A stretch of 64,000 bases of DNA, taken from positions 35,938 to 99,937 of the forward strand of contig CABMCB010000059.1 of NCBI GenBank assembly GCA_902384455.1, written 5' to 3'. The notes below the pieces were generated by a model, which saw nothing but the letters and a program-made list of their open reading frames with translations, made no database searches and was not told where the DNA came from. The position numbers and the translations under genes are program-made. Below, in pieces: positions 14,819 to 37,454 of this stretch. Source of the DNA: an uncultured archaeon (GTDB taxonomy: Archaea; Altiarchaeota; Altiarchaeia; IMC4; SCGC-AAA252-I15). How positions within the stretch are numbered: position 1 is the first letter of the stretch; each line of letters opens with the position of its first letter.

Positions 14819-14819
14819 T

Positions 14820-14906: not shown

Positions 14907-14915
14907 GTAAAATTT

Positions 14916-15003
14916 TGGCGGAAGGTAAGTGAATCGAACACTTACAACCTTTCGGTTGACTTAGGTTTAGCAAACCTATACGTTGCCTTTCCGTCAACCT
15001 TCC
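14916..15003 (-). tRNA. tRNA-Ser(GCT)
   Basis: TAGGT-TTGCTAA-ACCTA, long variable arm, CCA. Confidence 0.88.
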
Positions 15004-15006
15004 GCG

Positions 15007-15324: not shown

Positions 15325-15330
15325 AAATAT

Positions 15331-15935: not shown

Positions 15936-16699
15936 GACGCCGCTTCGGCCTTCGACACATCCGCTCGGATGTGACTGATAGGCACCGCGATTGTCGGTGT
16001 GGTCGTTCCATCGTAACCGCCGATGACCAACCCGATAATTCTGTGCGTCTTTTCGCTTACGATTGCGCTGCCGGATGCGCCGTGCGAATCAAACTGCTGC
16101 ACGAGCATCATGCCGTGAACCGCTGAGCCAGCCGGAGCGATAACGCTCGCGACACTGCCTCTCGTCATCTGCTTCGTCATCTTCTCACCGAGTGAGAAAT
16201 TGACATCCACAGTTGCGTCACCAACGGCGACATCTGATTCGTCGCCCAGTTCGATGACTGGAATCTTCGCGTCGGTCTTCATGTAGTAGACCGCGTAGTC
16301 TTGGTACTCGACGCCGTCTTCATTCGGCTCAATCACTTCGGCCTTCAGAAGCTTCACGGGCGTCTTCTCCGTGCCGACGTTGTCGGACACCGAGTAAACC
16401 AAACCCTTCGGCAAATCTTCCGGATTGCCCTCGGCGGTGCAGTGCCCTGCACCAATCAATTCGTAACCGCCAGCGACCTTCTTGAACGCGGTGACCGTGC
16501 ACAAGAAGTGCGTCACGTCGTGGTCGTTCTTGATTACGCCGTCGTCCGTCTCTATTTCCGCGCCAGCAGGCAGCGTACCATAGAGCGCCATGCTCGCTTG
16601 GTAAACTTTACCGTCGAAGCCGCGAGGTGTCTTCACATCCGCGAACGCCGACGAACAAACCAAAATCAAAGCCGCTACGAGAGAGAAAATCTTTCTCAT
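15932..16699 (-). CDS. Secreted trypsin-like serine protease
   Basis: Signal peptide; GAGHC (His), QDYA (Asp), HGASGS (Ser). Confidence 0.8.
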   Translation of the reverse strand: MRKIFSLVAALILVCSSAFADVKTPRGFDGKVYQASMALYGTLPAGAEIETDDGVIKNDHDVTHFLCTVTAFKKVAGGYELIGAGHCTAEGNPEDLPKGLVYSVSDNVGTEKTPVKLLKAEVIEPNEDGVEYQDYAVYYMKTDAKIPVIELGDESDVAVGDATVDVNFSLGEKMTKQMTRGSVASVIAPAGSAVHGMMLVQQFDSHGASGSAIVSEKTHRIIGLVIGGYDGTTTPTIAVPISHIRADVSKAEAAS

Positions 16700-16704
16700 C
16701 TACA

Positions 16705-16791
16705 TTTGCCCGTCAGACACGCCTTGGCAGAGCACCGGTGTCAGACATGCGCCGTTCCAATTGGACCCTCTGCTCGGCGAACATCAGCAAA
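16705..16791 (-). ncRNA. Unknown structured RNA
   Basis: Nested pairings TTTGCT/GGCAAA, CGCC/GGCG, GCAGAG/CTCTGC. Confidence 0.3.
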
Positions 16792-16806
16792 TCAGCTATT
16801 AAGTTT

Positions 16807-16881
16807 TGGACGACCCGTCGGGACTTGAACCCGAATCCTCGGTTTAGGAAACCGTAACTCTTTCCATTGAGCTACAGGTCG
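16807..16881 (-). tRNA. tRNA-Arg(CCT)
   Basis: CGGT-TTCCTAA-ACCG, CCA. Confidence 0.88.
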
Positions 16882-16882
16882 T

Positions 16883-16957
16883 TGGTAGGCCGTGGAGGAA
16901 TCGAACCTCCATTCAGCGCTTAGAAGGCGCTAGTCCTGTCCGTTGAACGAACAGCCC
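16883..16957 (-). tRNA. tRNA-Arg(TCT)
   Basis: AGCGC-CTTCTAA-GCGCT, CCA. Confidence 0.9.
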
Positions 16958-16964
16958 ACAGAAA

Positions 16965-17044
16965 AGTTGCCGACCGCCTTGTCCGTCTGGCTCCACAGGT
17001 TTTCAAGACCCGTGCCGGGAGTCGAACCCGGTTTTGTCGGACTT
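16965..17044 (-). ncRNA. Circularly permuted tRNA mimic A (YrlA-like architecture)
   Basis: CCGAC - T arm CCGGG-TTCGACT-CCCGG - closed 7-bp acceptor CACGGGT-CTTGAAA-ACCTGTG - GA - D arm GCC-AGACGGACAA-GGC - G - GTCGG. Confidence 0.75.
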
Positions 17045-17102
17045 GTCGGGCGCGTGGCTGGCCGTGTCACAGCCCTTTGGACTCGCGTTATCCGACTGAA
17101 AT

Positions 17103-17176
17103 TGGCAGGACGCGTAGGAATTGAACCCACTCCGTTCGGGTTGGAGCCGAACATGCTACCGTAACACTTGCGACCT
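17103..17176 (-). tRNA. tRNA-Trp(CCA)
   Basis: TTCGG-CTCCAAC-CCGAA, CCA. Confidence 0.88.
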
Positions 17177-17226
17177 GTAGTGCTCAAGAGCACACTGGGT
17201 GAGTTAGTGTGCCCTTGAGGTAAGAC

Positions 17227-17302
17227 TGGAGCGTGATACCAGATTCGAACTGGTGCGTACTGGGTGGAAGCCAGTCATGCTAGCCGCTAACATCAATCGC
17301 GC
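17227..17302 (-). tRNA. tRNA-Gly(TCC)
   Basis: ACTGG-CTTCCAC-CCAGT, U73, CCA. Confidence 0.88.
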
Positions 17303-17311
17303 TCGAAACTA

Positions 17312-17581
17312 TTAAACTGTTGGTGCCGGAGCAAGTGCTGCTACGACGGTTGCATCTACCGCGTCAACTGCTGCTGCGTCTGCCGCGTCCTTCGCTGCTA
17401 CTGCTGCTGCTACAGCGGTCGGGCCATTTTCAGCAATCAACTTAGCGATGTCTGCTTGCAACTTTGCCATGCTGTCTGCGAATGCCATCATTTCTCTCCG
17501 TAGTGCGTGAAGTAACAACCTGTCTTGATGCGATAGTTCGACTACTAACTTCGGGTTAGGTGATTGGGCTTTTCCAAACAT
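17312..17581 (-). CDS. Ala-rich hypothetical protein
   Basis: ORF between Gly tRNAs; alternative internal start MMAFADS with GGAG RBS. Confidence 0.5.
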   Translation of the reverse strand: MFGKAQSPNPKLVVELSHQDRLLLHALRREMMAFADSMAKLQADIAKLIAENGPTAVAAAVAAKDAADAAAVDAVDATVVAALAPAPTV

Positions 17582-17603
17582 TCGAACCTCGCTTTCAATT
17601 TTT

Positions 17604-17677
17604 TGGAGCGACGTACCAGAATCGAACTGGTGCCCGAACCTTGGCAAGGTTCTGTTCTACCACTATACCAACATCGC
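17604..17677 (-). tRNA. tRNA-Gly(GCC)
   Basis: GAACC-TTGCCAA-GGTTC, CCA. Confidence 0.9.
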
Positions 17678-17680
17678 TCG

Positions 17681-18022
17681 TTACAAACCTCTGAACATCA
17701 CCATGGCCTTTTCGTGGAGCACCAACTGCTCTGGTGTCATCTGGCCCACAACCTTGCGGAAGCGGCCCATCTTTCTGTTCACGTTCGGCCTGGTCGGGAT
17801 GGTCGTCCTTACTGCTAGAGGACCGTCACCGTTCTGTTGCTCAACGAACTGTCTCGCCTGTGCTTCAGAACTAAATCTCTTCTCAACAATTTCTCCGGTG
17901 TTGTTGTCCAACTTCGTCGCGGAGTGTCCGAGCCAGTTCCACTTGTCTCCGTGGTTGCGCTCGTGCGGCAATCTTTTGCGGTCTTCATTTTCATGCTTCG
18001 GACGTTCGATTCGCATAGTCAC
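17681..18022 (-). CDS. Hypothetical protein
   Basis: 113 aa ORF filling gap between tRNAs. Confidence 0.55.
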   Translation of the reverse strand: MTMRIERPKHENEDRKRLPHERNHGDKWNWLGHSATKLDNNTGEIVEKRFSSEAQARQFVEQQNGDGPLAVRTTIPTRPNVNRKMGRFRKVVGQMTPEQLVLHEKAMVMFRGL

Positions 18023-18029
18023 CTTAAAA

Positions 18030-18103
18030 TGGTACCCGTGGTCGGAATCGAACCGACGCTACGTCCGTGAGAGGGACGCGTTCTACCACTAGACTACATG
18101 GGC
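18030..18103 (-). tRNA. tRNA-Glu(CTC)
   Basis: CGTCC-CTCTCAC-GGACG, CCA. Confidence 0.88.
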
Positions 18104-18111
18104 ACAGAAAA

Positions 18112-18186
18112 TGGCGGAGATAGCGGGAATCGAACCCGCACTTTGCCCGTGACAGGGGCATGTCGTTACCAACTGACCCTATCTCC
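18112..18186 (-). tRNA. tRNA-Asp(GTC)
   Basis: TGCCC-CTGTCAC-GGGCA, G73, CCA. Confidence 0.88.
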
Positions 18187-18193
18187 GCGAAAC

Positions 18194-18267
18194 TGGAGCT
18201 TCGTAAAGGAATTGAACCTTTACCTCATCCTTACCAAGGATGCGTTCTGCCGTTGAACTAACAAAGC
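18194..18267 (-). tRNA. tRNA-Thr(GGT)
   Basis: CATCC-TTGGTAA-GGATG, CCA. Confidence 0.9.
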
Positions 18268-18277
18268 GTAAAACTTA

Positions 18278-18356
18278 TCCGGTGTGCTACCGTTACACTA
18301 TAGCAACGAGCGGCTTTACCCGTTCCCGCCTGTGGGATTCGAACCCCTCTACCGGA
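18278..18356 (-). ncRNA. Circularly permuted tRNA mimic B
   Basis: TCCGGT - T arm GGG-TTCGAAT-CCC - imperfect closed stem - TA-GTGT-AACGGTA-GCAC D arm - ACCGGA. Confidence 0.65.
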
Positions 18357-18360
18357 AGAT

Positions 18361-18434
18361 TGGAGCACCGTCGTGGAATCGAACCACGGCTTCTGCGCTA
18401 CGAGGGCAGCTTCATGCCACTAGAACAACAGTGC
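18361..18434 (-). tRNA. tRNA-Thr(CGT)
   Basis: CTGC(C)-CTCGTAG-(C)GCAG with C31:C39 mismatch, CCA. Confidence 0.8.
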
Positions 18435-18442
18435 AAAACTTT

Positions 18443-18548
18443 TGGAGGAAGTCCCTCTCACTTGGCCCATCCGGCGCAGGGCACCCCGAAGGGCTGGAGG
18501 TCCGCTTTCGACTGTGAAGAAGAAGCGTACTTACCGTTGAAGACTTCC
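18443..18548 (-). ncRNA. Unknown CCA-ended structured RNA
   Basis: Terminal helix GGAAGTCTT/GGGACTTCC then TCCA; internal hairpins CGCTT/AAGCG, CCC-TTCG-GGG, GCCC/GGGC. Confidence 0.5.
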
Positions 18549-18570
18549 TTCGCCTTGCGGCGAGTAATCA

Positions 18571-18646
18571 TGGAGCACATCGCTGGATTCGAACCAACGT
18601 GTCGAAGGTACAAGCTTCGCATACTAGACCGCTGTATGAGACGTGC
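18571..18646 (-). tRNA. tRNA-Thr(TGT)
   Basis: CGAAG-CTTGTAC-CTTCG, CCA. Confidence 0.85.
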
Positions 18647-18652
18647 TCGATA

Positions 18653-18728
18653 TGGCGTATCCCCTAGGATTTGAACCTAGGACCCTTCGGTTAACAGCCG
18701 AATGCTCTGGCCGCTGAGCTAGGGATAC
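18653..18728 (-). tRNA. tRNA-Asn(GTT)
   Basis: TTCGG-CTGTTAA-CCGAA, G1:C72, CCA. Confidence 0.9.
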
Positions 18729-18733
18729 AAAGA

Positions 18734-18821
18734 TGGCTGGAGCAGCAGGACTCGAACCTGCAATGTGCTTTCGCACTGCCTGGGTAACAGCCAGGTGCTG
18801 TACCAATTGAGCCACACTCCA
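18734..18821 (-). tRNA. tRNA-Asn(GTT) with long variable arm
   Basis: CCTGG-CTGTTAC-CCAGG, variable hairpin GTGC-GAAA-GCAC, U1:A72, G73, CCA. Confidence 0.8.
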
Positions 18822-18831
18822 GTAGAAATTT

Positions 18832-18906
18832 TGGAGCACCCACTCGGAATCGAACCGAGATAGTCAGTTTCGAAGACTGATGCCCTATCCGTTGGACGAC
18901 AGGTGC
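18832..18906 (-). tRNA. tRNA-Arg(TCG)
   Basis: TCAGT-CTTCGAA-ACTGA, CCA. Confidence 0.88.
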
Positions 18907-19223
18907 TCGTGTGTTCTGATGCGATGACAATTTGCACAAACGACATCGCATTTCGAAATTTCTTCCAGTAACTTCTCCATTGAGGAGTTGTGATAGCCGC
19001 TGGAAATGTTGAACTTCTTTACTCCGCGAACATGGTCAAAATCCATGCACACAGATGGGAACTTGTTCCCGCAATCAGCACACGCGACGTTCTTAGCTGG
19101 CTCGATTATCTCCGCGTACAGTCTTTCTTTCCGTTTCGCGGATTTGTCGATGTAATACTGCTTGTGGTTTTTGTAATGCCTTCGGCCACAAGCTTTAGCC
19201 AGTTCTGAATTAGCGTACGCCAT
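18885..19223 (-). CDS. HNH endonuclease
   Basis: CADCG...CMDFDHVRG...EISKCDVVCANCHRIRT. Confidence 0.85.
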   Translation of the reverse strand: MAYANSELAKACGRRHYKNHKQYYIDKSAKRKERLYAEIIEPAKNVACADCGNKFPSVCMDFDHVRGVKKFNISSGYHNSSMEKLLEEISKCDVVCANCHRIRTHEHLSSNG

Positions 19224-19227
19224 AAAT

Positions 19228-19304
19228 TGGTAGACCGTGGTGGATTTGAACCAACCATTATAGCCTTCGCAGGGCTATGTCCTATCCAGTTGAACGAACA
19301 GTCC
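19228..19304 (-). tRNA. tRNA-Arg(GCG)
   Basis: TAGCC-CTGCGAA-GGCTA, CCA. Confidence 0.82.
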
Positions 19305-19342
19305 ACATTAAATCGTACTTTCGAAAATTTGTCAAGAACTAT

Positions 19343-20017
19343 TTAGTTCAGTACTTCAACAACTGCGGTTCTCATCTGGATAGATGAAAGCGCTGAGCCG
19401 GTCACAGCCTGCAACAGCAGGTTGTTCGTGCTCGCTGCGGTCAAGTTAACCGCTATGCCAGCCGCTACGTTGGTGTCCTGATACTCTGACATCGGAGCGG
19501 TTGCTGAAGCACCAATCAAGATTGCCAAAGCGCCGTGTCCTTCAAGCGTACCGGATGCACCGGTTGAAACTGTGTAAATGTGGCCTTCGAAGTTCCATGG
19601 GAAGTTCGTTTGTGAGGCCGTTGTCGCTTGGCTCGTCGCGGTCAAAACCGTCTGAGTGAAAGCGCCAGAGAAACCTAGCTGAATACCAATCGTCGGCGTC
19701 TGTGCGCCAGCCGTGGTGTAAATGCCCCACATGCGTACGCGAAGAACCTTTCCGGCGACGTTCATGAACGCGGTCGGTAGCGCCAATGTGGCGAACGTTC
19801 CCGTGCCGTTCAATGCCGTCAGTGCAGCCGGAGCCGCGTTGTAAACAATCGCTGCGCCGCCTAGAGCGTAGTTCAAACCGTTCCAGAAGTACTTGCCCGA
19901 CTTCTGCGTCGTATCGTACCAGTAATCTCCGTCAATCGGAGAAGCCGGTGCAACACCGGACGGAATGTTCAAGGGCGCTGCTGCCGCTGTTGAGTTCGGC
20001 AATGTGAGAAATGACAT
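19343..20017 (-). CDS. Putative virion structural protein
   Basis: 224 aa, PSGVAPASPIDGDYWYD fibre-like motif, Ala/Thr/Gly-rich; GAGGAG RBS. Confidence 0.55.
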   Translation of the reverse strand: MSFLTLPNSTAAAAPLNIPSGVAPASPIDGDYWYDTTQKSGKYFWNGLNYALGGAAIVYNAAPAALTALNGTGTFATLALPTAFMNVAGKVLRVRMWGIYTTAGAQTPTIGIQLGFSGAFTQTVLTATSQATTASQTNFPWNFEGHIYTVSTGASGTLEGHGALAILIGASATAPMSEYQDTNVAAGIAVNLTAASTNNLLLQAVTGSALSSIQMRTAVVEVLN

Positions 20018-20100
20018 TTCTCCTCTCTTCGGCTACGCGCCGATATCACTGATGATGCAACTTGTACAAGATGAAAAGACTGATTGCTACACCAAGGACG

Positions 20101-20346
20101 TTACACACTGTTCGGGTCACTGCCAGCGCTAGGTCCAGTCTTTGGTGGTTCATTCTTCTCTTCTTTGCGCTTGGTCCGTTGCTCGTACCATTTGCGCCGT
20201 AAATCCAGATATTCCTTCTGCGCCGCGAGACTTTCCTGACTAACTTTCAGGCTCTCTTCAGCCATGCGCTTCATTGCGTGGTCGTCGATGTAGATTGCGA
20301 CCAGGATGAATATTTCTAAGACAAGAAGTGCATCCTGCCAAGTCAT
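20101..20346 (-). CDS. Single-TM hypothetical protein
   Basis: MTWQDALLVLEIFILVAIYI followed by coiled coil. Confidence 0.55.
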   Translation of the reverse strand: MTWQDALLVLEIFILVAIYIDDHAMKRMAEESLKVSQESLAAQKEYLDLRRKWYEQRTKRKEEKNEPPKTGPSAGSDPNSV

Positions 20347-20361
20347 AGTCACCTTCAAAAT

Positions 20362-20437
20362 TGGTACCCAGTGAGTGAATCGAACACTCCCCACCTCTTT
20401 GTAGGAGAGGCGCATACGACCAGTTTGCTAACCGGGT
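20362..20437 (-). tRNA. tRNA-Val(TAC), C33 variant
   Basis: CCTCT-CCTACAA-AGAGG, A73, CCA. Confidence 0.8.
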
Positions 20438-20745
20438 AATGCCTTAGCGATTTGTTGTTTCTTGATTCTCGCGTAAGGACGAATCTTTTTCAAAAACTCT
20501 CTTGCATTTCTGTTTGACACTATCCATCGCCAAACCTTTTTGTTGGTTCGTTTATCAGATGTGTGAATAGTGCCGAACTTAAAAAGGCGTTGAACGAACT
20601 TCAAAACTTTCACGTCTGTGTTCGTTATCGTTGCAATCGTTCGAAAATAATACTTGCCGTTCTTCGTTGCCTGATATTTCGCGAAACGGCAATGGCCTTC
20701 ACCATCGAACAACCCACTCACATAAGCTAAGTCGATTTTTCTCAC
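20428..20745 (-). CDS. LAGLIDADG homing endonuclease
   Basis: LAYVSGLFDGEG; FLKKIRPY..IKKQQ. Confidence 0.85.
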   Translation of the reverse strand: MRKIDLAYVSGLFDGEGHCRFAKYQATKNGKYYFRTIATITNTDVKVLKFVQRLFKFGTIHTSDKRTNKKVWRWIVSNRNAREFLKKIRPYARIKKQQIAKALPG

Positions 20746-20764
20746 TTAGTGCCTTTCGTAAACT

Positions 20765-20838
20765 TGGTGGACCGCCGGAGAGTCGAACTCCGTCTTGATG
20801 CGTGCAAGGCAACCGTATTCCCGTCCTACTCGCAGCCC
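20765..20838 (-). tRNA. tRNA-Ala(TGC)
   Basis: G3:U70, loop CTTGCAC, A73, CCA. Confidence 0.82.
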
Positions 20839-20846
20839 ACATAAAT

Positions 20847-20920
20847 TGGTTGCGGATGTCGGAGTCGAGCCGACCAGCAGTGCTTATGAGACACCGTACC
20901 TCACCCGAGGTGTACCCGCA
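20847..20920 (-). tRNA. tRNA-Met(CAT), divergent
   Basis: GGTGT-CTCATAA-GCACT; T loop CTCGACT; atypical D arm; CCA. Confidence 0.75.
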
Positions 20921-20929
20921 AAAGAAAAT

Positions 20930-21005
20930 TGGTAGCGTCGGCGGGATTCGAACCCGCGTGAGGACCTTGAAAGGGTCCCATCCTAGGCCACTAGATGACA
21001 TCGCC
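20930..21005 (-). tRNA. tRNA-Glu(TTC)
   Basis: GGACC-CTTTCAA-GGTCC, CCA. Confidence 0.9.
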
Positions 21006-21118
21006 ACAAAAGAAGCTAGAGCATGGCTTCTTTACAACTTCAGCTTACGCAAGGCTCCCGGCTGAAGCGCCCATACAGCGGGTGTTTACCGAGTAAACAA
21101 CCCACATATGGGTTAAAT

Positions 21119-21203
21119 TGGTACCCCGTGAGAGATTTGAACTCCCATGGCTGTTAACCGACGCGTTCTAAGCGCGTTGTGTCTGCCGTTCCACCAACAG
21201 GGC
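21119..21203 (-). tRNA. tRNA-Leu(TAG)
   Basis: ACGCG-CTTAGAA-CGCGT, long variable arm, CCA. Confidence 0.88.
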
Positions 21204-21214
21204 ACTGAAACTTA

Positions 21215-21274
21215 TGGAGCGGTCACTACCTGTGTGACAGGCACCTCCCCGGGCACTGCCCGGGAGCACCGCTC
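21215..21274 (-). ncRNA. Unknown CCA-ended two-hairpin RNA
   Basis: GAGCGGT/ACCGCTC closing TCCCGGG/CCCGGGG and TGCCTGT/ACAGGTA; ends TCCA. Confidence 0.45.
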
Positions 21275-21276
21275 GC

Positions 21277-21459
21277 TTACTTACGCATGTCTCGCACATG
21301 CTGGTAATATGAAAGCTGGTCCACCGGACGGTCGTGGTCATGACGACGGTCTTCGATGTCCGCGCTCATCGGATAATCTTTCGGGACTTGAAATCCCTTT
21401 GACGTATCCTTCGCGTCTCCGACAACTTTCATGCCTAGCTTCGGCTTATCGTCGGGCAT
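21277..21459 (-). CDS. Small hypothetical protein
   Basis: 60 aa, GAGGT RBS. Confidence 0.55.
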   Translation of the reverse strand: MPDDKPKLGMKVVGDAKDTSKGFQVPKDYPMSADIEDRRHDHDRPVDQLSYYQHVRDMRK

Positions 21460-21471
21460 ATTACCTCAAAC

Positions 21472-21546
21472 TGGTAGTCTCTCTGTGACTCGAACACAGG
21501 TCTCTCGCTAATCAGGCAAGCATCCTAGCCGCTGGACGAAAAGACT
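21472..21546 (-). tRNA. tRNA-Ile(GAT), U37 variant
   Basis: CTTGC-CTGATTA-GCGAG, CCA. Confidence 0.82.
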
Positions 21547-21554
21547 ACTGAAAT

Positions 21555-21645
21555 TGGTGGATGCGGAATGATTCGAACATTCTATGTGCCACAAGGACAT
21601 CCTGTTTTACAGACAGGTACGACCCGCCGTCTTCGCCGCACATCC
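21555..21645 (-). tRNA. tRNA-Tyr(GTA)
   Basis: CCTGT-CTGTAAA-ACAGG, long variable arm, A73, CCA. Confidence 0.85.
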
Positions 21646-21656
21646 ACTGAAACTAA

Positions 21657-21743
21657 GGGAACCCACGGGTCACTCACCCGCGCCAATCACGGGTCCGGTA
21701 CCGGATATCCGTAATCGTTCAATCTACCTCGAACTGCGTTCCC
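21657..21743 (-). ncRNA. Unknown four-way-junction RNA
   Basis: GGGAAC/GTTCCC closing GTTCGA/TTGAAC, GATTACGG/CCGTGATT and CGCGGGT/ACCCGTG. Confidence 0.45.
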
Positions 21744-21751
21744 ACGAAACT

Positions 21752-21827
21752 TGGTGGGTCGCCAGCGACTTGAACGCTGAACTTGCTCCTTAAAAGGGAG
21801 AAATGTTGCCGCTAACACCTGCAACCC
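21752..21827 (-). tRNA. tRNA-Lys(TTT)
   Basis: CTCC-CTTTTAA-GGAG, CCA. Confidence 0.85.
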
Positions 21828-21860
21828 ACGATAATCGGTAACGTTCTACCGATTGAAACT

Positions 21861-21935
21861 TGGTGGACTACCAGGGATTCGAACCCTGACCAAACTCGTT
21901 AAGAGCGAGCTATGCAACCGTAACACCTGTGGTCC
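21861..21935 (-). tRNA. tRNA-Lys(CTT)
   Basis: GCTCG-CTCTTAA-CGAGT, CCA. Confidence 0.88.
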
Positions 21936-22083
21936 ACTGAAAAATCTGACAGCTTGTTGTCATGGAACGGACTTTAATCGGAGTTCTACCGATGCTGTCT
22001 ACGCCGTCTCACGTTGTATCCCCGCGTGAAGACTGTGTTCACGCCTCATGTTAAGCGACGACACTGTCTCGTCGCGGGAAGAT

Positions 22084-22172
22084 TGGTACTCGATGAAGGA
22101 ATCGGACCTTCGTGCAAGCGTAATCTACGCCGACTCGTTATAAGCGAGTGCCGCAAACCATCGCAATCGAGT
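22084..22172 (-). tRNA. Atypical tRNA with TAT anticodon and long variable arm
   Basis: Acceptor ACTCGAT/ATCGAGT, D arm GCGA-TGGT-TTGC, ACTCG-CTTATAA-CGAGT, variable hairpin GCGTA/TACGC, T loop TCCGATT, ACCA. Confidence 0.75.
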
Positions 22173-22178
22173 AAAAAG

Positions 22179-22287
22179 TTGTCCGGAGCGTACGCTTTCG
22201 GCGTCTCACCCGCCATCACGAATGCCGCGTCAACGGCACTGACTTCCCCTCGTTAGACTCGGTTGACGCCGGTCGCGAGTCGGACAA
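22179..22287 (-). ncRNA. Unknown structured RNA
   Basis: TTGTCCG/CGGACAA terminal helix, inner GCGTCAAC/GTTGACGC. Confidence 0.4.
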
Positions 22288-22289
22288 AT

Positions 22290-22368
22290 TGGTGCGCCGC
22301 GTGAGATTCGAACTCACATGTGGTCACGTTTTAAGTGTGCCGCGTATGCCGCATTCCGCCAGCAGCGC
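22290..22368 (-). tRNA. tRNA-Leu(TAA) lacking long variable arm
   Basis: Leu-type D arm GGCGGAATGCGGCATACGC, loop CTTAAAA, ~6-nt variable region, A73, CCA. Confidence 0.75.
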
Positions 22369-22595
22369 TAAACTCTTGTGCTCGTCGCGGAAGCTAGCGT
22401 ATCGCTGGTTCCGGGCTGATACGCAACCGTACCTGAAGCACAAACATCGCTAGGGTCAACAACCCATTGCTTCCATGCCAGCCGGGTTGCAACCCGTAGG
22501 CACTTCAGATGTGGACTTCTACCACGCGAAAACTTATGAGACAGCCCTGGCCGAAGCCACTCCGGGTAATACCTTAGTCTTACGTCTCAAACTTT

Positions 22596-22656
22596 TTCGG
22601 TGTGCCCACTACACTACTTCTGGCTAGGCCAGCACGGAGTCGAACCGTCTACCGAA
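22596..22656 (-). ncRNA. Circularly permuted tRNA mimic C
   Basis: TTCGGT - ACGG-TTCGACT-CCGT - CTGGC-CTA-GCCAG - TA-GTGT-AGTGG-GCAC - ACCGAA. Confidence 0.7.
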
Positions 22657-22659
22657 TCT

Positions 22660-22746
22660 TGGTCGCCCACACAGGACTCGAACCTGTACGCTTTTCACGG
22701 CACCGGGTTTTGAATCCGGCATGTCTGCCAGTTCCATCAGCAGGCG
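22660..22746 (-). tRNA. tRNA-Leu(CAA)
   Basis: Loop TTCAAAA, long variable arm, CCA. Confidence 0.88.
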
Positions 22747-22805
22747 AAATTCTCCCGGCAAAGGCCGGGAAGGGGTGGTTACCTCAGCGCTAAGCGCTCC
22801 TAAAT

Positions 22806-22879
22806 TGGTCCCTGCTGTTTGAATCGAACAAACACGACCGGCTTTTCAGACCGGGATGCGACCACTACATCAAACAGGG
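22806..22879 (-). tRNA. tRNA-Phe(GAA)
   Basis: CCGGT-CTGAAAA-GCCGG, CCA. Confidence 0.88.
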
Positions 22880-22880
22880 T

Positions 22881-22955
22881 TGGGGCGAACGTCGGGATTC
22901 GAACCCGAACCGGCGGATTCACAGTCCACCGTGCTGCCGTTACACTACACACGCC
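22881..22955 (-). tRNA. tRNA-His(GTG)
   Basis: GTGGA-CTGTGAA-TCCGC, G-1:C73, CCA. Confidence 0.9.
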
Positions 22956-23997: not shown

Positions 23998-24497
23998 TAT
24001 GAACCAAAGTGCTTTCGGGTGTCAAGACCCAAATGCTTGAACGCGGCGACGACTTTTTCGCGGAACTCGTCAAACTCTTCCCGGCGGATGCGCGGGTTGC
24101 TGATGTCGAGCGCGGCCAGGAATCCTAGTTCGCTCGCGGCCTGCTCGACCAGGGTGTCGAGAACCTTCTGGCCCTCGGGAGTGTCAAAAATTGTCACATC
24201 GCCGGTTTGCGCTGCGCGGGATGCGCTCGCGGTCGCCGGAGTGAGAAATGGGTTGGGATTGCCCATCGTGTCGGTCTCGGACTTCATGTCGAAGCCTTCG
24301 TGCTTCTGCAGAATGGAGAGGATGGCCTCGGCGTCGGGCTTGGCCGGACTGTATCCGGGGCCTTTATCGAAATCGGTCTGAGATTCGGTCTCAGCGGCCT
24401 TAACTTCTGCGGCTTCAAGTTTTTGGCGCTCGAATGCCTGTCCCGCCGTCTCAGGGACGCGGTTGACTATCGTTTCGGTGCTCATTGTGTCCTTCAC
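23997..24497 (-). CDS. Hypothetical protein
   Basis: 166 aa; probable start MSTETIV with AAGGA RBS. Confidence 0.55.
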   Translation of the reverse strand: MKDTMSTETIVNRVPETAGQAFERQKLEAAEVKAAETESQTDFDKGPGYSPAKPDAEAILSILQKHEGFDMKSETDTMGNPNPFLTPATASASRAAQTGDVTIFDTPEGQKVLDTLVEQAASELGFLAALDISNPRIRREEFDEFREKVVAAFKHLGLDTRKHFGS

Positions 24498-25134
24498 GCT
24501 TCAGCCGAATCAATTCCAAGGCCGGAGCGATTGTGTTCATTTCTTCAAACGTAAATTCTAGCCTACCGCGTAACTCCATGCACCGGATACAAGCCGGAAC
24601 TGAGTTGTATGCTGTAACTACCATCCCTTCGATAAAATCCAGGGATGTTCCTTTCTTGTCCAGGACGGAGCCGCAATAATGGCACTCGTCTTCAGATAGC
24701 AATCCTTCGTAAAAATTGATACTCCATAGGGGGTCAGTCTCCGGCACCCTATGATTTCTCATAACGTCCCTTAGGACGGCATGCTTTGCTCCGAGGCTCC
24801 CGGTTTTCGTTCCGGATAGCTTTTCCCGGGTTCTGATTCTTTTAGCTTTGTCCCGCTCAACCTGTATCGCTTCGTTTCGACGAGTAAGGCGCTCGATGCG
24901 CTCCTCGCGCTGTCGGTCGTTGTTCTCCCTTTGAAGACACCCGCAGCTTTTCTTCCGGCCTAGGAGTAGCTTATCCTCCCGAGCCTCTGTCTCATTCCCG
25001 CAGTCACAAGATGCGACCCAGACTCTTCTTCCCTTCTCAGAATGAGAAAAGTTCTCAATAGTGAGACGTGAGAATTTCATACCCGGCTCTATGGTGAGAC
25101 GGGGGGTCTGATTTGATACCCGGTTAGGTGTCAC
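24451..25134 (-). CDS. HNH-type homing endonuclease-like protein
   Basis: FSRLTI...CDCGN...KSCGC N-terminal module plus CHYCG...SLD...NSVPACIRC. Confidence 0.7.
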   Translation of the reverse strand: MTPNRVSNQTPRLTIEPGMKFSRLTIENFSHSEKGRRVWVASCDCGNETEAREDKLLLGRKKSCGCLQRENNDRQREERIERLTRRNEAIQVERDKAKRIRTREKLSGTKTGSLGAKHAVLRDVMRNHRVPETDPLWSINFYEGLLSEDECHYCGSVLDKKGTSLDFIEGMVVTAYNSVPACIRCMELRGRLEFTFEEMNTIAPALELIRLKREGHNEHRNDSQPRP

Positions 25135-25359: not shown

Positions 25360-25905
25360 TTGCGTTGCAAATCCTTGCAAGTCGTTGCAAAGCTTGCAAA
25401 CCCTTGCGAATCAACGAGTTGCGCTCGCCGTGATTAACAAAGTATTACACTCGAAACCCGGCTCGACGCGGACTGAGGCCTTTTTGGTCGAAAAATGGGC
25501 AAATATGTGCTTTGTTTTCAATTTTTTACGACAAAATCGCTCGAAATGGGTAAAAAATGACAAAAAAGTGAAATTTTCTTGCGAGTTTGGCAATGAAAAT
25601 GCTGCCGAGTGTCGCGTCTCACGTATGTCTCAATCCCTGTAAGCGTGTAAGTCATTGATTTCGCTAGGCTTTCTCAGGTAATCTCACTGTGAAACGTGTC
25701 TCACGATGGGTGTCTCAGGCCTGCGACCGGTCTGGCGAATCGTCTCATCAATCGTCTCATGATGAGACAGTTGAGGATGACGTTCGCGAGTACATCTCTG
25801 GTCATAAGATGCGCCAAACATAACGCCCATTATATTGACCATTCCGTCACCAAATGCTGTCGCCAAATGGTGGCTGCAATTCTGGCAAATAGTGTCGCCA
25901 AATGG
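25360..25905. repeat. Repeat-rich non-coding region (TTGCAA, A-tracts, GTCTCA, CGCCAAA)
   Basis: TTGCAA at 25365/25375/25385/25394; phased A/T tracts ~25480-25580; GTCTCA at 25616/25627/25698/25712/25742/25754; CGCCAAA/CACCAAA x4 in 25810-25905. Confidence 0.6.
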
Positions 25906-26139
25906 CCTGTCTAGGAAGGGAGGAAGATTGACCAAAGAGATAATCCCTCGCGTAACGAGAGGAAGGCGCTTTATATGAATAACATACAGAATGTTATCCG
26001 AAACCGTTTTAATCCTCTGAATACGCTCTCCTGCCCTTACAGAACAGCATCTGGCGACAGAATTAGCCAGAATCCGGGCCAGAATTGTCTTGACAAGCTG
26101 GCTCGGATTGTGTCACACTCGCGAGCGGAGGCAAACGCA

Positions 26140-26400
26140 ATGGCTAAAACGACTGTAGAATTGATTGTGGCATACCTGGCCGCGCATGGCGGACAGTGTC
26201 GAGAGCGGATGTTGGTTCGAAGACTGCAGCGCCGGAAGGATTTTCGCGAGACAATCGCTAGACTTGGAAAGAATGACATCGTCCGGTCTAGCGGAATGGG
26301 AACTAAGACTGACCCAAAGATGCTGACCCTCGCGGCATCGCATAACAAGCTGTGCCCGAACTGCCAAGGTTTAGGATTCGTTCGCGAGGTGACGCTGTGA
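26140..26400 (+). CDS. Small wHTH-like protein with C-terminal CPNC
   Basis: GGAGG RBS; TTGACA promoter candidate at ~26090. Confidence 0.5.
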   Translation: MAKTTVELIVAYLAAHGGQCRERMLVRRLQRRKDFRETIARLGKNDIVRSSGMGTKTDPKMLTLAASHNKLCPNCQGLGFVREVTL

Positions 26401-26765
26401 GACATCTATGCATCACAAGAGAGCAGTTCAAATCACCGTGTGTCTATCAGTTTTTGAACGCGGAGGGAATTGTCATTTATATCGGCAGAGGAAAAGACTG
26501 GTCTCGACCGTTTAGAAAACACGCGACGAAGAACACAGAACCAACTCGTCACGATGTTGAACATGCGTGGCGCGACCCGTACGGACGCAGATACCAGGAC
26601 AAGAGGCCGCAAGCGTTCGCCGAGGCCCACGAGATTCGAATATTCCCATGCGCGACAATCGAGGATGCGACTGCACTGGAACGCCTGCAAATAGGCGAAC
26701 ACAAACCGAAATACAATAAGCACCATAATCCAGACCGATGTGCACATCAAGGGCCAAAGATTTAG
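26397..26765 (+). CDS. GIY-YIG endonuclease
   Basis: CVYQFLN...IYIGRG...ALERLQIGEHKPKYN. Confidence 0.8.
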   Translation: MRHLCITREQFKSPCVYQFLNAEGIVIYIGRGKDWSRPFRKHATKNTEPTRHDVEHAWRDPYGRRYQDKRPQAFAEAHEIRIFPCATIEDATALERLQIGEHKPKYNKHHNPDRCAHQGPKI

Positions 26766-27550: not shown

Positions 27551-27826
27551 TTGACAATGGGTAACCTACAGTATCAGGTATCCCGCAAGGTGTCCTGGAA
27601 GGACCAGGCGAATGCACGAGCAAGGCTCAACGCGTATCTGCGCACCGTGCACATGGACTCGCACGCGGTCAACACGGTCGAGAACATGGAGCGATTCGCG
27701 AGAGAGATTCGAACAGCGTGCGACACCCCGGAGTGCAAAGGGCACGGCATCTACATCTGGCGCGGGAAGCACTATTGCACGAAGCATAAACCAACCATAC
27801 CGTACACCACCAGATACCAGTTCTAG
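27551..27826 (+). CDS. Hypothetical protein with Cys/His motif
   Basis: CDTPEC...YCTKH; probable ATG at 27557. Confidence 0.5.
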   Translation: MTMGNLQYQVSRKVSWKDQANARARLNAYLRTVHMDSHAVNTVENMERFAREIRTACDTPECKGHGIYIWRGKHYCTKHKPTIPYTTRYQF

Positions 27827-27857
27827 TACTCCGGTACCAGTTGAAAATCGGTACTAA

Positions 27858-27893
27858 AGTACCATTGCGTCTTTTCAGCTTCCATGCGAGAAT
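27858..27893 (+). promoter_or_regulatory. Early promoter with AGTACCA box
   Basis: AGTACCA-TTGCGT-N17-GAGAAT. Confidence 0.5.
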
Positions 27894-27899
27894 GTATTC

Positions 27900-28530
27900 A
27901 CGATAGAGATGGCGAGGATAGCAGCCCCTGATGCGGCCCGGTCCTCGCCCCCTCTGGTAGAATCTCTCAGAGCCAAGGCGTTCGAGGCAAAGCACGAAAG
28001 CCTGTCTGACCCGCGAGTAGAGATTCTTTCCGAGGGTAACACCTCTACCAGCCTGCGATAAGTGGCGGCTGGACGTGCCTAGATGAACTCACCAGGCGGC
28101 ACGGTGGATGCGCTGACACCGGGTAATACGGGATGACGACCTTTGCCCGGTGTCGGATTCGAGTTCGTCGCTCGAATGGTTCGAATCCCGCTACTCTCAA
28201 ACCTTTGGGTGTCGTCTGGTAGAACGGCGGCAGTGGCCGTGCAGAAGCCGGACCCTAGTTGGAGCAATTGCTTGGCACCCAGGCATTTTGTGTGGCTAGC
28301 AGTAGCGAGTCCTAACGCCGTGTCCGAGACGTCCCGCTTTGAAACGGGGTAGCGTCGAGGGGAGCATGGTTGCGAGTAGACTTGCAAGCGAAAGCAACGG
28401 GTAGCTCGCTACTGCCAGCCACACTACGATTCGGCGAGAAAGCTAGCAGGTATTTGCAACCGTGAACAGCGGGACTGCTAGACGGCAGACGTGCAAACAT
28501 CCTGTTCGATGCGTTCCGGCTCGCCACTAA
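27900..28530 (+). ncRNA. Large structured non-coding RNA candidate
   Basis: No credible ORF; many long helices (27959-27967/28019-28027; 28113-28126/28143-28156; 28290-28310/28404-28424); GGTTCGAATCC at 28178. Confidence 0.6.
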
Positions 28531-28543
28531 TTCAGGAGGGCAC

Positions 28544-28789
28544 ATGGTCACGAACCTGGAGCAAGCGCATGCACAAAACTTTGACGTAACTATGTTGCCA
28601 GCCCGGGCGACAGAACTCATAGAAACCGTTCGGGCGAATCACGCGGCGACTGAAAGACTGACTGCTGAATTTATACATGAGATAACAGTCGGAGCGCACA
28701 CGTTTCAACTGCACTGCCTGTGCGTCAGCCGGAGACCCGGAGTCATAGCGCCAGTGATGAAAGCGGCAAAGCTGGCGCGTAAACTTTAG
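28544..28789 (+). CDS. Hypothetical protein
   Basis: 81 aa, AGGAGG RBS. Confidence 0.55.
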   Translation: MVTNLEQAHAQNFDVTMLPARATELIETVRANHAATERLTAEFIHEITVGAHTFQLHCLCVSRRPGVIAPVMKAAKLARKL

Positions 28790-31835: not shown

Positions 31836-32218
31836 TTTGCTCTCGATGTAAGAGCGGCGAACCGGCTCCGGGTTTGAAGATATGTCAGAATTGCAGGGAC
31901 TACTTTCAAACGTGGGGGAAGAAGAGAGAAGCAAAGCAGAAAAGAATTTGCATGAATCGGTACGGAAAGGACGACGGATGCGTCTGCTGTGGTGAGAAAC
32001 ACATAAGTTTTTTGACAATCGACCACATCGAGGACGACGGCTACAAAAATAGAGACACGCAAGGTCGCGGGAAACATCTTTACAGATATTTAATCAATCA
32101 GAATTTTCCGCGAGGCTTTCAAACGCTTTGTTTTAACTGCCAGTGGGGTAAGCGACTGAACGGCGGATTTTGCCCTCATCACCCTCACCGAGACTTGAGG
32201 ATAGAACATGCAAGCTAA
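31832..32218 (+). CDS. HNH-like endonuclease
   Basis: CVCCGE...FLTIDHI..DG...FQTLCFNC. Confidence 0.75.
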   Translation: MICSRCKSGEPAPGLKICQNCRDYFQTWGKKREAKQKRICMNRYGKDDGCVCCGEKHISFLTIDHIEDDGYKNRDTQGRGKHLYRYLINQNFPRGFQTLCFNCQWGKRLNGGFCPHHPHRDLRIEHAS

Positions 32219-32954
32219 GATTCTTTTTCTGGATATTGAGACCGCGCCGTCACTAGGATGGGTGTGGGCGAAGTGGGAAACGAATGTCATCGACTTCAAG
32301 CAGGACTGGTACATTCTCTCGTACGCATATAAGTGGGCGGGAGAGGACAAGGTCACGACGGTCGGTCTGCCGGACTTCGGAGCGTACAACCGCAACAAGG
32401 AAGACGACCGACAGCTAACCAAAAGCCTGCGAAAGCTACTAGATGAAGCAGATGTGGTCATCGCGCACAACGGCGACGGGTTTGACTTGCCGAAGATTAA
32501 TACGCGAATGCTCACGCACAAGCTTGCTCCGCCGTCTCCTTATAAGACGGTAGACACTTTGAAGATTGCACGCAAGACTTTCAAGTTCGACAGCAACAAG
32601 CTGGACGACCTGGGCCGGTATCTCGGCATCGGTCGCAAGCTTCCGCACACGGGATTCCATCTGTGGAAGAACTGCATGGACGGAAAACCCGAAGCCTGGA
32701 AGATGATGAAGGAATACAACGGTCACGACGTGGAACTCCTAGAGAAGGTGTACTACATCATGCGACCGTGGACAGGCAACACGCACCCGAACGTCAACCA
32801 GTTCAGTGCGAACCTAGCATGTCCGAAGTGCGGCAACGAACAGGTTCAGCGCAGAGGATACAGCTACACACAATTGAGTCGCAAGCAAAGATTCCAGTGC
32901 ACCGGACCCAAGGGTTGCGGCACCTGGTACGAGGGCAGTGCAAAGAAAGTTTGA
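32208..32954 (+). CDS. RNase H-like (DEDD) exonuclease with C-terminal zinc ribbon
   Basis: FLDIET, AHNGDGFD, YNGHDV, CPKCG. Confidence 0.85.
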   Translation: MQAKILFLDIETAPSLGWVWAKWETNVIDFKQDWYILSYAYKWAGEDKVTTVGLPDFGAYNRNKEDDRQLTKSLRKLLDEADVVIAHNGDGFDLPKINTRMLTHKLAPPSPYKTVDTLKIARKTFKFDSNKLDDLGRYLGIGRKLPHTGFHLWKNCMDGKPEAWKMMKEYNGHDVELLEKVYYIMRPWTGNTHPNVNQFSANLACPKCGNEQVQRRGYSYTQLSRKQRFQCTGPKGCGTWYEGSAKKV

Positions 32955-32957: not shown

Positions 32958-33464
32958 ATGGACCTGACAGACCAATACTGGGAGAAGTACCTGTGGGCCA
33001 AACCCTTCGCTGACGCGGAGGACCTGGACAGCCTGATTCCCTTGGTGCCTTACAAGCAGTACCTGCCGAGCGAACCGACGCATCCCCGGGCGTTCATTCC
33101 GAACTACGTACGATGGGCCAAGAGGAAAGAGCTAGACTTTACCTGCCCCATCACCGGATGGAAAGAGACGGACTTCTTTCACGACATCGCGGGAAACGGA
33201 GCGGTAAGAATGGTAGGACGCTTGACGGTTGACCACATCATCCCGGGCTCTCTCGGCGGCATGACTACCGATGAGAACATTCAGATGATTTCTGAATTCG
33301 CAAACGTCAAGAAGGGAAACCGGCAGATAACGAACCAGGAATTACGTGAGCAGCTTCTCTCGACACATAAGAAAGTGGACGAGCGCTACGACGAACTGCT
33401 TTCTGTGCTTAGAAAATACGAAGTAAATCAATTTAGGATGGGCAGCGCGAGGATGACAAAATGA
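32958..33464 (+). CDS. HNH domain protein
   Basis: LTVDHIIP..GG....NIQMISEFANVKKG. Confidence 0.7.
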   Translation: MDLTDQYWEKYLWAKPFADAEDLDSLIPLVPYKQYLPSEPTHPRAFIPNYVRWAKRKELDFTCPITGWKETDFFHDIAGNGAVRMVGRLTVDHIIPGSLGGMTTDENIQMISEFANVKKGNRQITNQELREQLLSTHKKVDERYDELLSVLRKYEVNQFRMGSARMTK

Positions 33465-35877: not shown

Positions 35878-36199
35878 CAGACTCCGCAGTCCGGAGAACT
35901 TTCCAACGTCGGTACTCATCAAGGAAACCGTCTTCGCAGAAAGCGAAGAACAGTTGAAGCACATCTATAATGCAAAGTTTTCTCTGCACGTCGCTTCTCC
36001 AGGCCTAGCGGTATGGATTGACCCGGACCGCGTTGACGCAAGCCGCATCACGTTCAATCAGAAAATCTTCGTGCCCTGGCACATGATTACCTACTTCCAC
36101 GGCGACGTTCACCCGATTACTCCCTTGCAGCCGAAGGACAAGAGTCTGACCGGCGAGCCTATGCCGGAAGACAGCAAGAAGAAAGAAACCGTTCAATGA
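35840..36199 (+). CDS. Hypothetical protein
   Basis: 119 aa in operon. Confidence 0.5.
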   Translation: MQEYLIVFQAHVDRLRSPENFPTSVLIKETVFAESEEQLKHIYNAKFSLHVASPGLAVWIDPDRVDASRITFNQKIFVPWHMITYFHGDVHPITPLQPKDKSLTGEPMPEDSKKKETVQ

Positions 36200-36915
36200 T
36201 TTACTGCAGCATCGACTTCGAAACAACCGGCACGCATCTCATCAACGACCGTGGCATCGAGTCCGCTACGGTTTTGTTCAGCACGGCGCACAACCGCATG
36301 CTGGACGTACAGAGCATGCTCATCAAGACTGACAAGCCAGTCACGGCAGAAATCACCGGCATCACCGGCATCATCAAAGCGATGCTCGACCGTTTCGGCT
36401 ACGAGAACCGAGACGTTCTCGAAAGCATCATCGCGACCATCGAACAGAGCGAAGCCGTCATCGGATACAACTCCCGCCGTTTCGACTATCATATCCTAGA
36501 CCAGTGGGCGAAGCGCGAAGGCATGACGCTGCCTGTGCGTCCGTGGATTGATTTCTTCTACGACATGCCGTGGCAGGTGCCGACCGGCAAGCTGACGCAC
36601 GTCATGGCAGACCATGGTTTTCTAAACTACTTTCCACACGCAGCGCTGGCCGATGCACTCGGCGTCGTGCTGCTATCGACCAAGTACAGCCCCGAGCTAA
36701 TGCTCGCGAGGTCACAGAGTCCGGTCGTCGTGCTCCGCAGCCAAGCGGACCGCAGCCAGAACGACCTGGTCAAGAAGGCAAAGTTTCGCTGGAACCCCGG
36801 AGCTAAAATCTGGTGGAAGCCGGTGAAGGCGCAAGACGTTCAAGAAGTAAGTGAGTCACTTCCGTTCGGAGTTTCAATAGATGGAAGGACACAAGAGGAG
36901 CTAGAAGGACAATGA
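36196..36915 (+). CDS. DnaQ-like 3'-5' exonuclease (DEDDh)
   Basis: IDFETTG, GYNSRRFD, HAALADA. Confidence 0.85.
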   Translation: MIYCSIDFETTGTHLINDRGIESATVLFSTAHNRMLDVQSMLIKTDKPVTAEITGITGIIKAMLDRFGYENRDVLESIIATIEQSEAVIGYNSRRFDYHILDQWAKREGMTLPVRPWIDFFYDMPWQVPTGKLTHVMADHGFLNYFPHAALADALGVVLLSTKYSPELMLARSQSPVVVLRSQADRSQNDLVKKAKFRWNPGAKIWWKPVKAQDVQEVSESLPFGVSIDGRTQEELEGQ

Positions 36916-37454
36916 CAAACAGCGGTGGAGACGTCCTAGCACGCGGCGGAGTGAGCGCACAGTTTTCAACCCCGAACGTGTCTCAGGACAAATGGGACGA
37001 AGCAGTAGGCGGTGATAATTCTTTCGAAGAGAGAATGCGCAAGAAGGCTCTCGCGGAAGGCATCACCGAGGAACAGTACGAGGCCCAGGTTGCGGAAGCT
37101 AGCAGGCTAGCATCTGAAATCGAGGCAGCGGACAAGGCTGAGCGCGAAGCGGCGCAGGCCAAAATCAAGATTCGTGCAATCGCGGACCGCGTTATCGTGC
37201 GCCGTGTCGAGGTTGCAGAAAAAGTAGGACGTCTTTTTGTGGCGGACGAATCGAAAGAGAAGCCATACGAAGGCGATGTAGTAGCGGTCGGCCCGGGCCG
37301 GTTTATCGAAGGCAAATACCAACCCACCTCCATTGCAGTCGGAGAGCGGGTTGTCTTCGGGAAATATTCGGGCGCGGAAGTACGGATAGGATTCGAAACC
37401 CTGCTCGTGCTACGCGAAGAAGACATCTTTCTCGTTAAGGAACAAGGAGACTAA
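36912..37454 (+). CDS. groES: GroES co-chaperonin with N-terminal extension
   Basis: IRAIADRVIVRR...KEKP..GDVVAVGPG...VGERVVFGKYSG.EV...LREEDI. Confidence 0.85.
   Translation: MTNSGGDVLARGGVSAQFSTPNVSQDKWDEAVGGDNSFEERMRKKALAEGITEEQYEAQVAEASRLASEIEAADKAEREAAQAKIKIRAIADRVIVRRVEVAEKVGRLFVADESKEKPYEGDVVAVGPGRFIEGKYQPTSIAVGERVVFGKYSGAEVRIGFETLLVLREEDIFLVKEQGD

Follow-up and report, generated by a model that had tools for sequence, protein, structure and literature searches.

What is made from a stretch of some 640 nt that lies directly behind an early promoter in a tightly packed phage genome and holds no credible gene? The window referred to throughout is the whole stretch of DNA that was analysed, 64,000 nt in length, and corresponds to bases 35938-99937 of the 99,937-bp contig C59, which is binned into a 2.4-Mb metagenome-assembled genome. 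C59 is a phage contig of ~100 kb that carries 34 tRNAs. It has no close isolate among 50,697 phage records, in which helicase identity reaches at most 29.5%. In window positions, its genes are laid out as follows:

Below 13 kb, minus strand: portal, large terminase and other structural genes.
13373-22954, minus strand: 34 tRNA genes (ARAGORN).
From ~25.3 kb, plus strand: early/replication arm.

The early/replication arm encodes endonuclease VII, a split DNA polymerase, a primase-polymerase, a helicase and a ribonucleotide reductase. Within this arm, a gap of 717 nt (27827-28543) separates the ORF at 27551-27826 from the ORF at 28544-28789. The reading that we favour, with a probability of roughly 0.4, is that the interval forms the folded non-coding first ~640 nt of an early transcript (about 27900-28540, plus strand) and gives rise to a stable trans-acting RNA. 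We infer that the element acts as RNA, not as DNA or protein; the transcript, its ends and its stability are likewise deduced from sequence.

The case for a transcript begins with the elements found at the upstream edge of the gap:

27828-27864, plus strand: run of GTAC(T/C) half-sites, including the perfect palindrome GGTACTAAAGTACC (27850-27863).
27865-27893, plus strand: sigma-70-like promoter, with the -35 TTGCGT (27865-27870), a 17-nt spacer and the -10 GAGAAT (27888-27893); its predicted start is at about A27900.

TTGCGT-17-GAGAAT agrees with the consensus at 8 of 12 positions and is missed by a generic promoter scan. Weak as it is by consensus, the promoter proposed at 27865-27893 in the preliminary description is nevertheless real, being a member of a conserved early class. 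Indeed, the 19-mer GGTACTAAAGTACCATTGC, which consists of the palindrome and ATTGC, recurs with one or two mismatches at C38:31042, C38:31646 and C10:840, on two further contigs of the same bin, and the pattern GGTACTAAAGTACYATTG finds an exact match in 11 IMG/VR contigs, many of them 75-100 kb long. The layout GTACYATTGN, 17 nt and a TAnAcT-like -10 is also seen at window positions 26772 and 28789 and at C10:849. Altogether, sites of the class lie at window positions 26772, 27859 and 28789, at C38:31051, 31655 and 32616, at C10:849 and in the 11 IMG/VR contigs. In their architecture, GTAC(T/C) half-sites or the palindrome GGTACTAAAGTACY are fused to the -35 (ATTGNN), followed by 17 nt and the TAnAcT-like -10. 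The run at 27828-27864 is likely the operator or UP region of this class, and the class itself, as read from sequence, suggests that a group of uncultivated phages of ~95-100 kb have a regulator in common. As measured crudely by a script, class promoters are mostly followed by an ORF with a ribosome site at 2-155 nt, and here the distance is 646 nt. A variant of the early promoter is used by contigs C25 and C40, pieces of a possible third phage in the bin.

The gap ends at the following elements, in the order in which they are met:

28534-28539, plus strand: ribosome site AGGAGG.
28544-28789, plus strand: 81-aa ORF, at whose stop codon the next early promoter starts.

The absence of a credible ORF after the promoter, noted at the outset, is borne out. 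The longest plus-strand ORFs within the gap measure 69, 50, 49, 32 and 31 aa, no ribosome site is seen ahead of any of the plus-strand gap ORFs, and the minus strand holds ORFs of 108, 102 and 102 aa. All gap ORFs on both strands receive a negative score (-4.8 to -47 bits) from a codon-phase Markov model for which 60 long ORFs of C59 served as the training set, and no 120-nt window between 27780 and 28800 rises above +2.1 bits in any frame. This model is weak, since several presumed neighbouring early genes likewise score negative. The 81-aa ORF itself scores -11.7 bits; its ribosome site is strong, and a search of 5.8 billion proteins returns no relative but itself. A six-frame comparison (tblastx) with the corresponding region of C10 finds no conserved reading frame.

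The predicted folding of the gap is far from that of random sequence. The plus strand reaches -275.9 kcal/mol, compared with -235.3 +/- 6.3 in 20 dinucleotide shuffles (z -6.43), and 55 shuffles of 27900-28533 give z -5.06; the dense base-pairing first noticed is upheld by the shuffling check proposed for it. For each third of the region, all 200 shuffles fold less well (z -3.24, -2.79 and -3.63). Among 199 windows of 641 nt in the genome, the two over this region take ranks 2 and 3 and, after regression on G+C, lie 42-44 kcal/mol (-3.4 and -3.3 sd) below expectation. The flanking ORFs are shuffle-like (upstream 27551-27826, z +0.77; downstream 28544-28789, z -0.14), as is the ORF downstream of the C10 stretch (z +0.63), and therefore the folding excess ends at the edges of the gap. 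All eight complementarities listed in the preliminary description are present in the sequence. Four of them appear in the full-length minimum free energy (MFE) structure at probabilities of 0.99-1.0, whereas the other four compete with alternatives. The MFE helices in this probability range are GGCGAGGAU/GUCCUCGCC, AGAAUCUC/GAGAUUCU, a 12-14-bp hairpin at 28115-28154 and the 21-bp helix 28290-28310/28404-28424. The long-range pairing proposed between 27905-14 and 28189-97 amounts to just 4+3 pairs and is absent from the MFE structure. Downstream of a short 5′ module described below, the region can be laid out as follows:

28052-28533, plus strand: folded body, fast-evolving (pairing predictions and shuffle tests).
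28115-28154, plus strand: predicted body hairpin of 12 bp.
28155-28188, plus strand: predicted body hairpin of 13 bp, holding GGTTCGAATCC.
28210-22/28475-87, plus strand: predicted body helix.
28269-28295, plus strand: terminator-like hairpin UGCUUGG-CAC-CCAGGCA followed by UUUUGUGUGG, inside the body.
28290-28310/28404-28424, plus strand: predicted three-way body domain closed by the 21-bp helix.

Terminator-like hairpins of this kind occur 5 times in 6 kb, where shuffles predict 6.9, so that the one at 28269-28295 does not exceed chance expectation. It has no plus-strand counterpart in C10, and the two phages have no conserved terminator in common. One of the forms first imagined for this region, an array of small RNAs, finds no backing either in repeated units, of which none is found, or in such a terminator.

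Folding statistics do not fix the strand in this phage: a first estimate gave z -4.74 for the minus strand against -6.43 for the plus strand, and 55 shuffles give -5.41 against -5.06. The plus strand is pointed to by the promoter, by G-U pairs in several long helices and by C10, where the plus strand folds better (z -4.04 against -2.11; with 55 shuffles, -4.37 against -2.67). The same figures bear on the proposal that the inverted repeats work at the level of DNA, perhaps as a replication origin at which the promoter would supply a primer or R-loop transcript, as RNA II does in ColE1. Equal folding of both strands above shuffles in C59 is what such an element would show, the region lies within the early/replication arm, and the transcript would be slightly G-rich (G 31%, C 27%). 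Yet the gap has a G+C content of 56-58% and is not AT-rich, and no iterons are present. Moreover, several long helices rely on G-U pairs, which become A-C on the other strand, and the plus strand is clearly the better folder in C10. A better origin candidate exists at 25643-25974, where repeats and a GC-skew minimum are found. We therefore regard a DNA-level element as improbable.

The most informative comparison is offered by a second, related phage in the same bin, ~94 kb in size and split over contigs C38 (30 tRNAs) and C10. Between C59 and C38/C10, 61 tblastn matches of C59 ORFs are found, at 27-75% identity. Also listed beside C38/C10 are the bin contigs C25, C40, C54, C58 and C63. At C10:849, the promoter TTGACG-17-CATACT is followed by ~680 nt taken as ORF-free, then by GGAGGGC and a GTG start at 1573. 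The locus is syntenic, standing 1.3 kb upstream of the endonuclease VII gene, compared with 2.1 kb in C59, and the C10 stretch is over-folded as well, as the plus-strand values given above indicate. The proteins that flank the element are non-homologous between the two phages, and the RNA element is therefore better kept than its neighbours. What is kept is concentrated in two helices:

27911-27949, plus strand: hairpin H1, a 9-bp stem (27911-19/27941-49) with the 21-nt loop AGCAGCCCCUGAUGCGGCCCG (27920-27940); pairing probability 0.99.
27954-28051, plus strand: helix P2 (27954-61/28044-51), CUGGUAGA/UCUACCAG (model R3).

The H1 loop is identical to C10:906-926 at 20 of 21 positions. Consistently, blastn between the two RNA regions returns two significant segments, namely the promoter and a 21-nt block that is the H1 loop, and a covariance model built from H1 of this phage alone finds its C10 match with 24.6 bits. 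P2 encloses an 82-nt subdomain with the conserved block GGCAAAGCAC (27986-27995). Model R3, made of H1 and P2 from this phage only, aligns to C10:883-1044 end to end (19.3 bits, E ~1e-3, with 7.5-13 kb searched). In this alignment, 33 of 34 cells pair, and 7 of 17 pairs have changed on both sides and still pair, a covariation that comes from two sequences in an alignment fitted to the tested structure. The compensatory changes fall on 4 of the 9 pairs of H1 and 3 of the 8 pairs of P2, and all 8 P2 pairs form in both phages. One in 500 column shuffles equals the observed pairing, and slid registers give 0 compensatory pairs. RNAalifold re-predicts H1 and P2 from the same alignment. In energy terms, forming P2 carries a penalty of 4.9 kcal/mol with respect to the MFE of the 5′ domain.

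A syntenic geneless stretch of ~650 nt, a folding excess that ends at ORF borders and a nearly invariant loop carried on covarying stems together make up the signature of a functional RNA. The idea that the early promoter is followed by a large non-coding element with dense folding accordingly stands, as the element recurs in C10 with compensatory changes in its 5′ helices. It and its C10 counterpart are best read as the two members of a new family of structured non-coding RNAs made early by phages, newness being judged against the Rfam copy used.

The body behaves differently from the 5′ module. A global alignment of the C59 and C10 bodies gives z -0.47, with 138 of 200 shuffles scoring as high, and three collinear thirds aligned between the two give z +0.27, -0.73 and -0.30. 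The predicted architectures also differ, being nested in C59 and arranged as three tandem domains in C10. Such divergence is what one would expect if the 5′ module alone were functional and the ~500-nt body were decaying or neutral, for instance the remains of lost early genes. A neutral body, however, should fold like shuffled sequence, and the middle and 3′ thirds depart from it (z -2.8 and -3.6), as does the C10 counterpart, which is mostly body and reaches z -4.0 and -4.4 as a whole. The end of the folding excess at the ORF borders also speaks against it, as does the retention of length (~640 nt in C59, ~680 nt in C10) in otherwise tightly packed genomes. A neutral body is thus unlikely, and we keep to the reading in which the whole ~640 nt serves as a folded RNA.

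Comparison with known RNA classes places the element outside all those for which models exist in the Rfam copy used. With gathering thresholds, cmscan of the whole window returns tRNAs only (27 hits), all outside the gap; at E<=10, 27700-28700 yields two unrelated weak matches and the C10 homologue none. Group I and II introns, RNase P, 6S, SRP and riboswitches are set aside, with no Rfam match at E<=10. A CsrB-like sponge is likewise rejected, as GGA motifs number 10 against 13.7 expected. The assignment to a GOLLD- or ROOL-like class made in the preliminary description does not hold as a family relationship, with no match to an Rfam model at E<=10 in either phage; the likeness lies in size, phage origin and unassigned function. 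As described in PMC12286853 and PMC5737381, ROOL has a mean length of 581 nt and GOLLD is often longer than 800 nt, and both are encoded by phages or prophages, often near tRNA islands, with no function assigned in these accounts. The present element shares their size class and phage origin and belongs to a phage with 34 tRNAs, 5 kb from the tRNA array. It differs in lying on the strand opposite the tRNAs, with ~10 genes between, and in that GOLLD and ROOL cores are kept across phyla, whereas the body here is unconserved even between two related phages. A narrower likeness concerns the H1 loop, which contains a GGCC palindrome: OLE RNA has a GGCC-type palindrome in an intermolecular kissing loop, and GOLLD a shorter GC/CG one, as reported in PMC12286853. 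Conserved multistem junctions, pseudoknots and a homo-oligomeric cage are among the features that define GOLLD and ROOL; multimers are, in the present case, a possibility read from sequence. The cabRNA of staphylococcal phages, as presented in PMC10686824, is a structured phage RNA that meets host immunity; the likeness goes as far as being a structured phage RNA, and the element differs from cabRNA, within the scope of that account, in being a dedicated ORF-free early unit with no known CBASS link.

Another candidate is a degenerate or permuted tmRNA, or another tRNA-like RNA, of this tRNA-rich phage. The T-loop motif GGTTCGAATCC reported earlier at 28178-28188 is present, and ARAGORN at thresholds of 80-85% calls a permuted tmRNA at 28110-28443 with the tag ASPNAVSETSRFETG, in which the acceptor-like pairing would carry a G-U at the third position. 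To this extent there is a likeness to the two-piece (permuted) tmRNAs. The motif, however, fails as a T-loop: its T-stem (around 28180-86) has 2 pairs, and it is predicted to form the 3′ strand of the 13-bp hairpin. A tRNA is rejected as well, ARAGORN placing all 34 tRNAs at 13373-22954. As for the permuted tmRNA, ARAGORN stays silent with its thresholds at default, 95% or 90% and does not identify the tag, no Rfam tmRNA family matches at E<=10, and the segment is unconserved in C10. Chance readily produces such sub-threshold calls, the 2.4-Mb bin giving 672 at 80% and 96 at 85%, such that ~0.28 and 0.04 are expected per kb. With nothing found at 90% and hundreds of calls in the bin under relaxed settings, the permuted tmRNA at 28110-28443 is rejected, and a tmRNA-like or tRNA-like origin appears very improbable.

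A more serious alternative is that of a cis-acting leader, in which the 5′ module would act on the transcribing polymerase or on downstream translation, in the manner of put, an antitermination RNA that renders RNA polymerase resistant to terminators, with the long fold serving as leader or timer. The model for such an arrangement is putL of phage HK022, which according to PMC9378689 is ~70 nt long and forms two stem-loops right after PL. The H1/P2 module resembles it in that two helices stand immediately 3′ of an early promoter, beginning ~12 nt past the predicted start. The resemblance is one of position and shape only, no sequence likeness being seen, and the module here, at ~150 nt against ~70 nt for put, leads into a further ~500 nt of folded RNA. 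Both RNAs end directly at the ribosome site GGAGGGC, which in C10 is sequestered by CCCUCC at 1538-43 with a pairing probability of 0.98-1.0. No conserved terminator stands between the RNA and the next ORF, which is equally compatible with a leader and with a free RNA. The ribosome site in C59, by contrast, is not stably sequestered by upstream sequence and pairs mainly with the downstream coding sequence (0.7). In addition, the downstream ORFs are unrelated between the phages, the 81-aa ORF here being without relatives, and no Rfam cis-regulatory family matches. Finally, ~500 nt of over-folded, ORF-free sequence far exceeds what known put- or riboswitch-type leaders need. A cis-acting leader is on balance somewhat unlikely, and we prefer a scaffold or decoy that acts in trans and exposes the H1 loop.

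The trans-acting RNA might then work as follows. The early-class promoter would drive a transcript starting near A27900. Its conserved ~150-nt 5′ module would use H1 to display the almost invariant 21-nt loop and P2 to close the small subdomain, and the ~500-nt body would stay ORF-free and over-folded in both phages while its sequence drifts freely. The H1 loop would contact a partner from the host or the phage, either a protein or, through the GGCC palindrome, another RNA. The body, made nuclease-resistant by its folding, would provide a scaffold or act as a decoy; the anti-defence role first suggested for such decoys is conjectural. A bolder version, which we consider speculative and unlikely, sees here a new modular class of large phage RNA, in which the 5′ handle (H1 loop and P2) docks on a host machine and the body is a decoy or a self-assembling scaffold. 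In that case, the machine could be RNA polymerase, as for put, or a protein of immunity or RNA decay, and the body would possibly self-pair via the GGCC loop palindrome.

Were the bolder version true, the RNA would be made in the first minutes of infection and would take part in host takeover. To our knowledge, only a small number of large structured RNAs are known from phages, GOLLD and ROOL among them, and their functions have yet to be found; one more case without relation to these would enlarge the set. The element would also make a tractable test case, with a defined early promoter, a short conserved bait module and a natural pair of diverged copies. It further shows that such RNAs can be recognised by strong folding restricted to a gap without ORFs, even with two copies and a silent Rfam.

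Searches for additional members of the family were extended well beyond the bin. With both RNAs as query, blastn finds no homologue in the 50,697 phage records, BLAST finds none in 21 genomes of the family, and a search for the loop pattern finds no copy in 61 genomes of the phylum. BLAST and model R2 return no copy from 10 related IMG/VR records, and the positive control in the own bin recovered both copies. In sets of 26, 8 and 80 related loci, blastn and nhmmer detect no homologue, and model R2 finds no further copy over 128 related loci (48 + 80 sources). Four loop-pattern matches in IMG/VR are rejected, as they have neither the stem nor the promoter and their flanks look, by eye, like one conserved coding sequence. 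A transposon-like element is likewise discarded, no other copies being found in the bin by BLAST.

Neighbouring genes were also used as anchors. The 81-aa ORF leads to no loci in IMG/VR or metagenomes, and the 131-aa ORF to 6 viral and 2 genome loci with no upstream RNA. The polymerase exonuclease leads to 25 viral and 80 metagenome loci, among which the closest metagenome contigs (exonuclease identity 81% and 79%) are too short to span the region. An apparent gap in one locus, L059, proves to be filled by small overlapping genes (z -2.0) and is set aside. In the closest full relative found, G022 (exonuclease identity 69%), early genes are tightly packed at the syntenic place, with no comparable gap. 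Two long 'leaders' flagged there by a script are doubtful, the one inspected sitting inside a gene. As for possible targets, 12-mers complementary to the H1 loop give chance-level matches in the bin, and no complementary segment common to both RNAs is found within them. Among public sequencing runs, the stretch occurs in three DNA runs of one study, as short identical pieces at low depth, and no RNA run is listed.

Several other features of the phage genome deserve mention. In the tRNA array, 27 of the 34 ARAGORN genes reach the Rfam tRNA threshold; among the 7 below it are odd genes, for example Ile(tat) at 22084-22172 and Phe(aaa) at 22290-22368. The Asn(gtt) tRNA at 18734-18821 is, with 88 nt, unusually long among the 34. 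The DNA polymerase is encoded in separate pieces, comprising an exonuclease (32208-32954), an exonuclease-like ORF (36196-36915) and the polymerase (43399-45717). An HNH endonuclease ORF (32958-33464) lies directly 3′ of the first of these pieces, a further HNH match is found at 24451-25134, and a weak GIY-YIG match at 26352-26765. A GroES-like domain makes up the C-terminal half of a 180-aa protein (36912-37454), and a glycosyltransferase block occupies 55358-63885 together with three nucleotide-sugar epimerase-like genes.

The interval 25643-25974 is a candidate origin or regulatory DNA in its own right. It corresponds to the most over-folded 641-nt window in the 64 kb (residual -46.9 kcal/mol), and its two strands fold alike (z -2.8 and -2.6). 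It contains several GTCTCA repeats, five by eye, and two 20-nt direct repeats resembling CAAATGCTGTCGCCAAATGG, 35 nt apart, and it sits at the minimum of the cumulative GC skew, near the point where leftward and rightward genes diverge.
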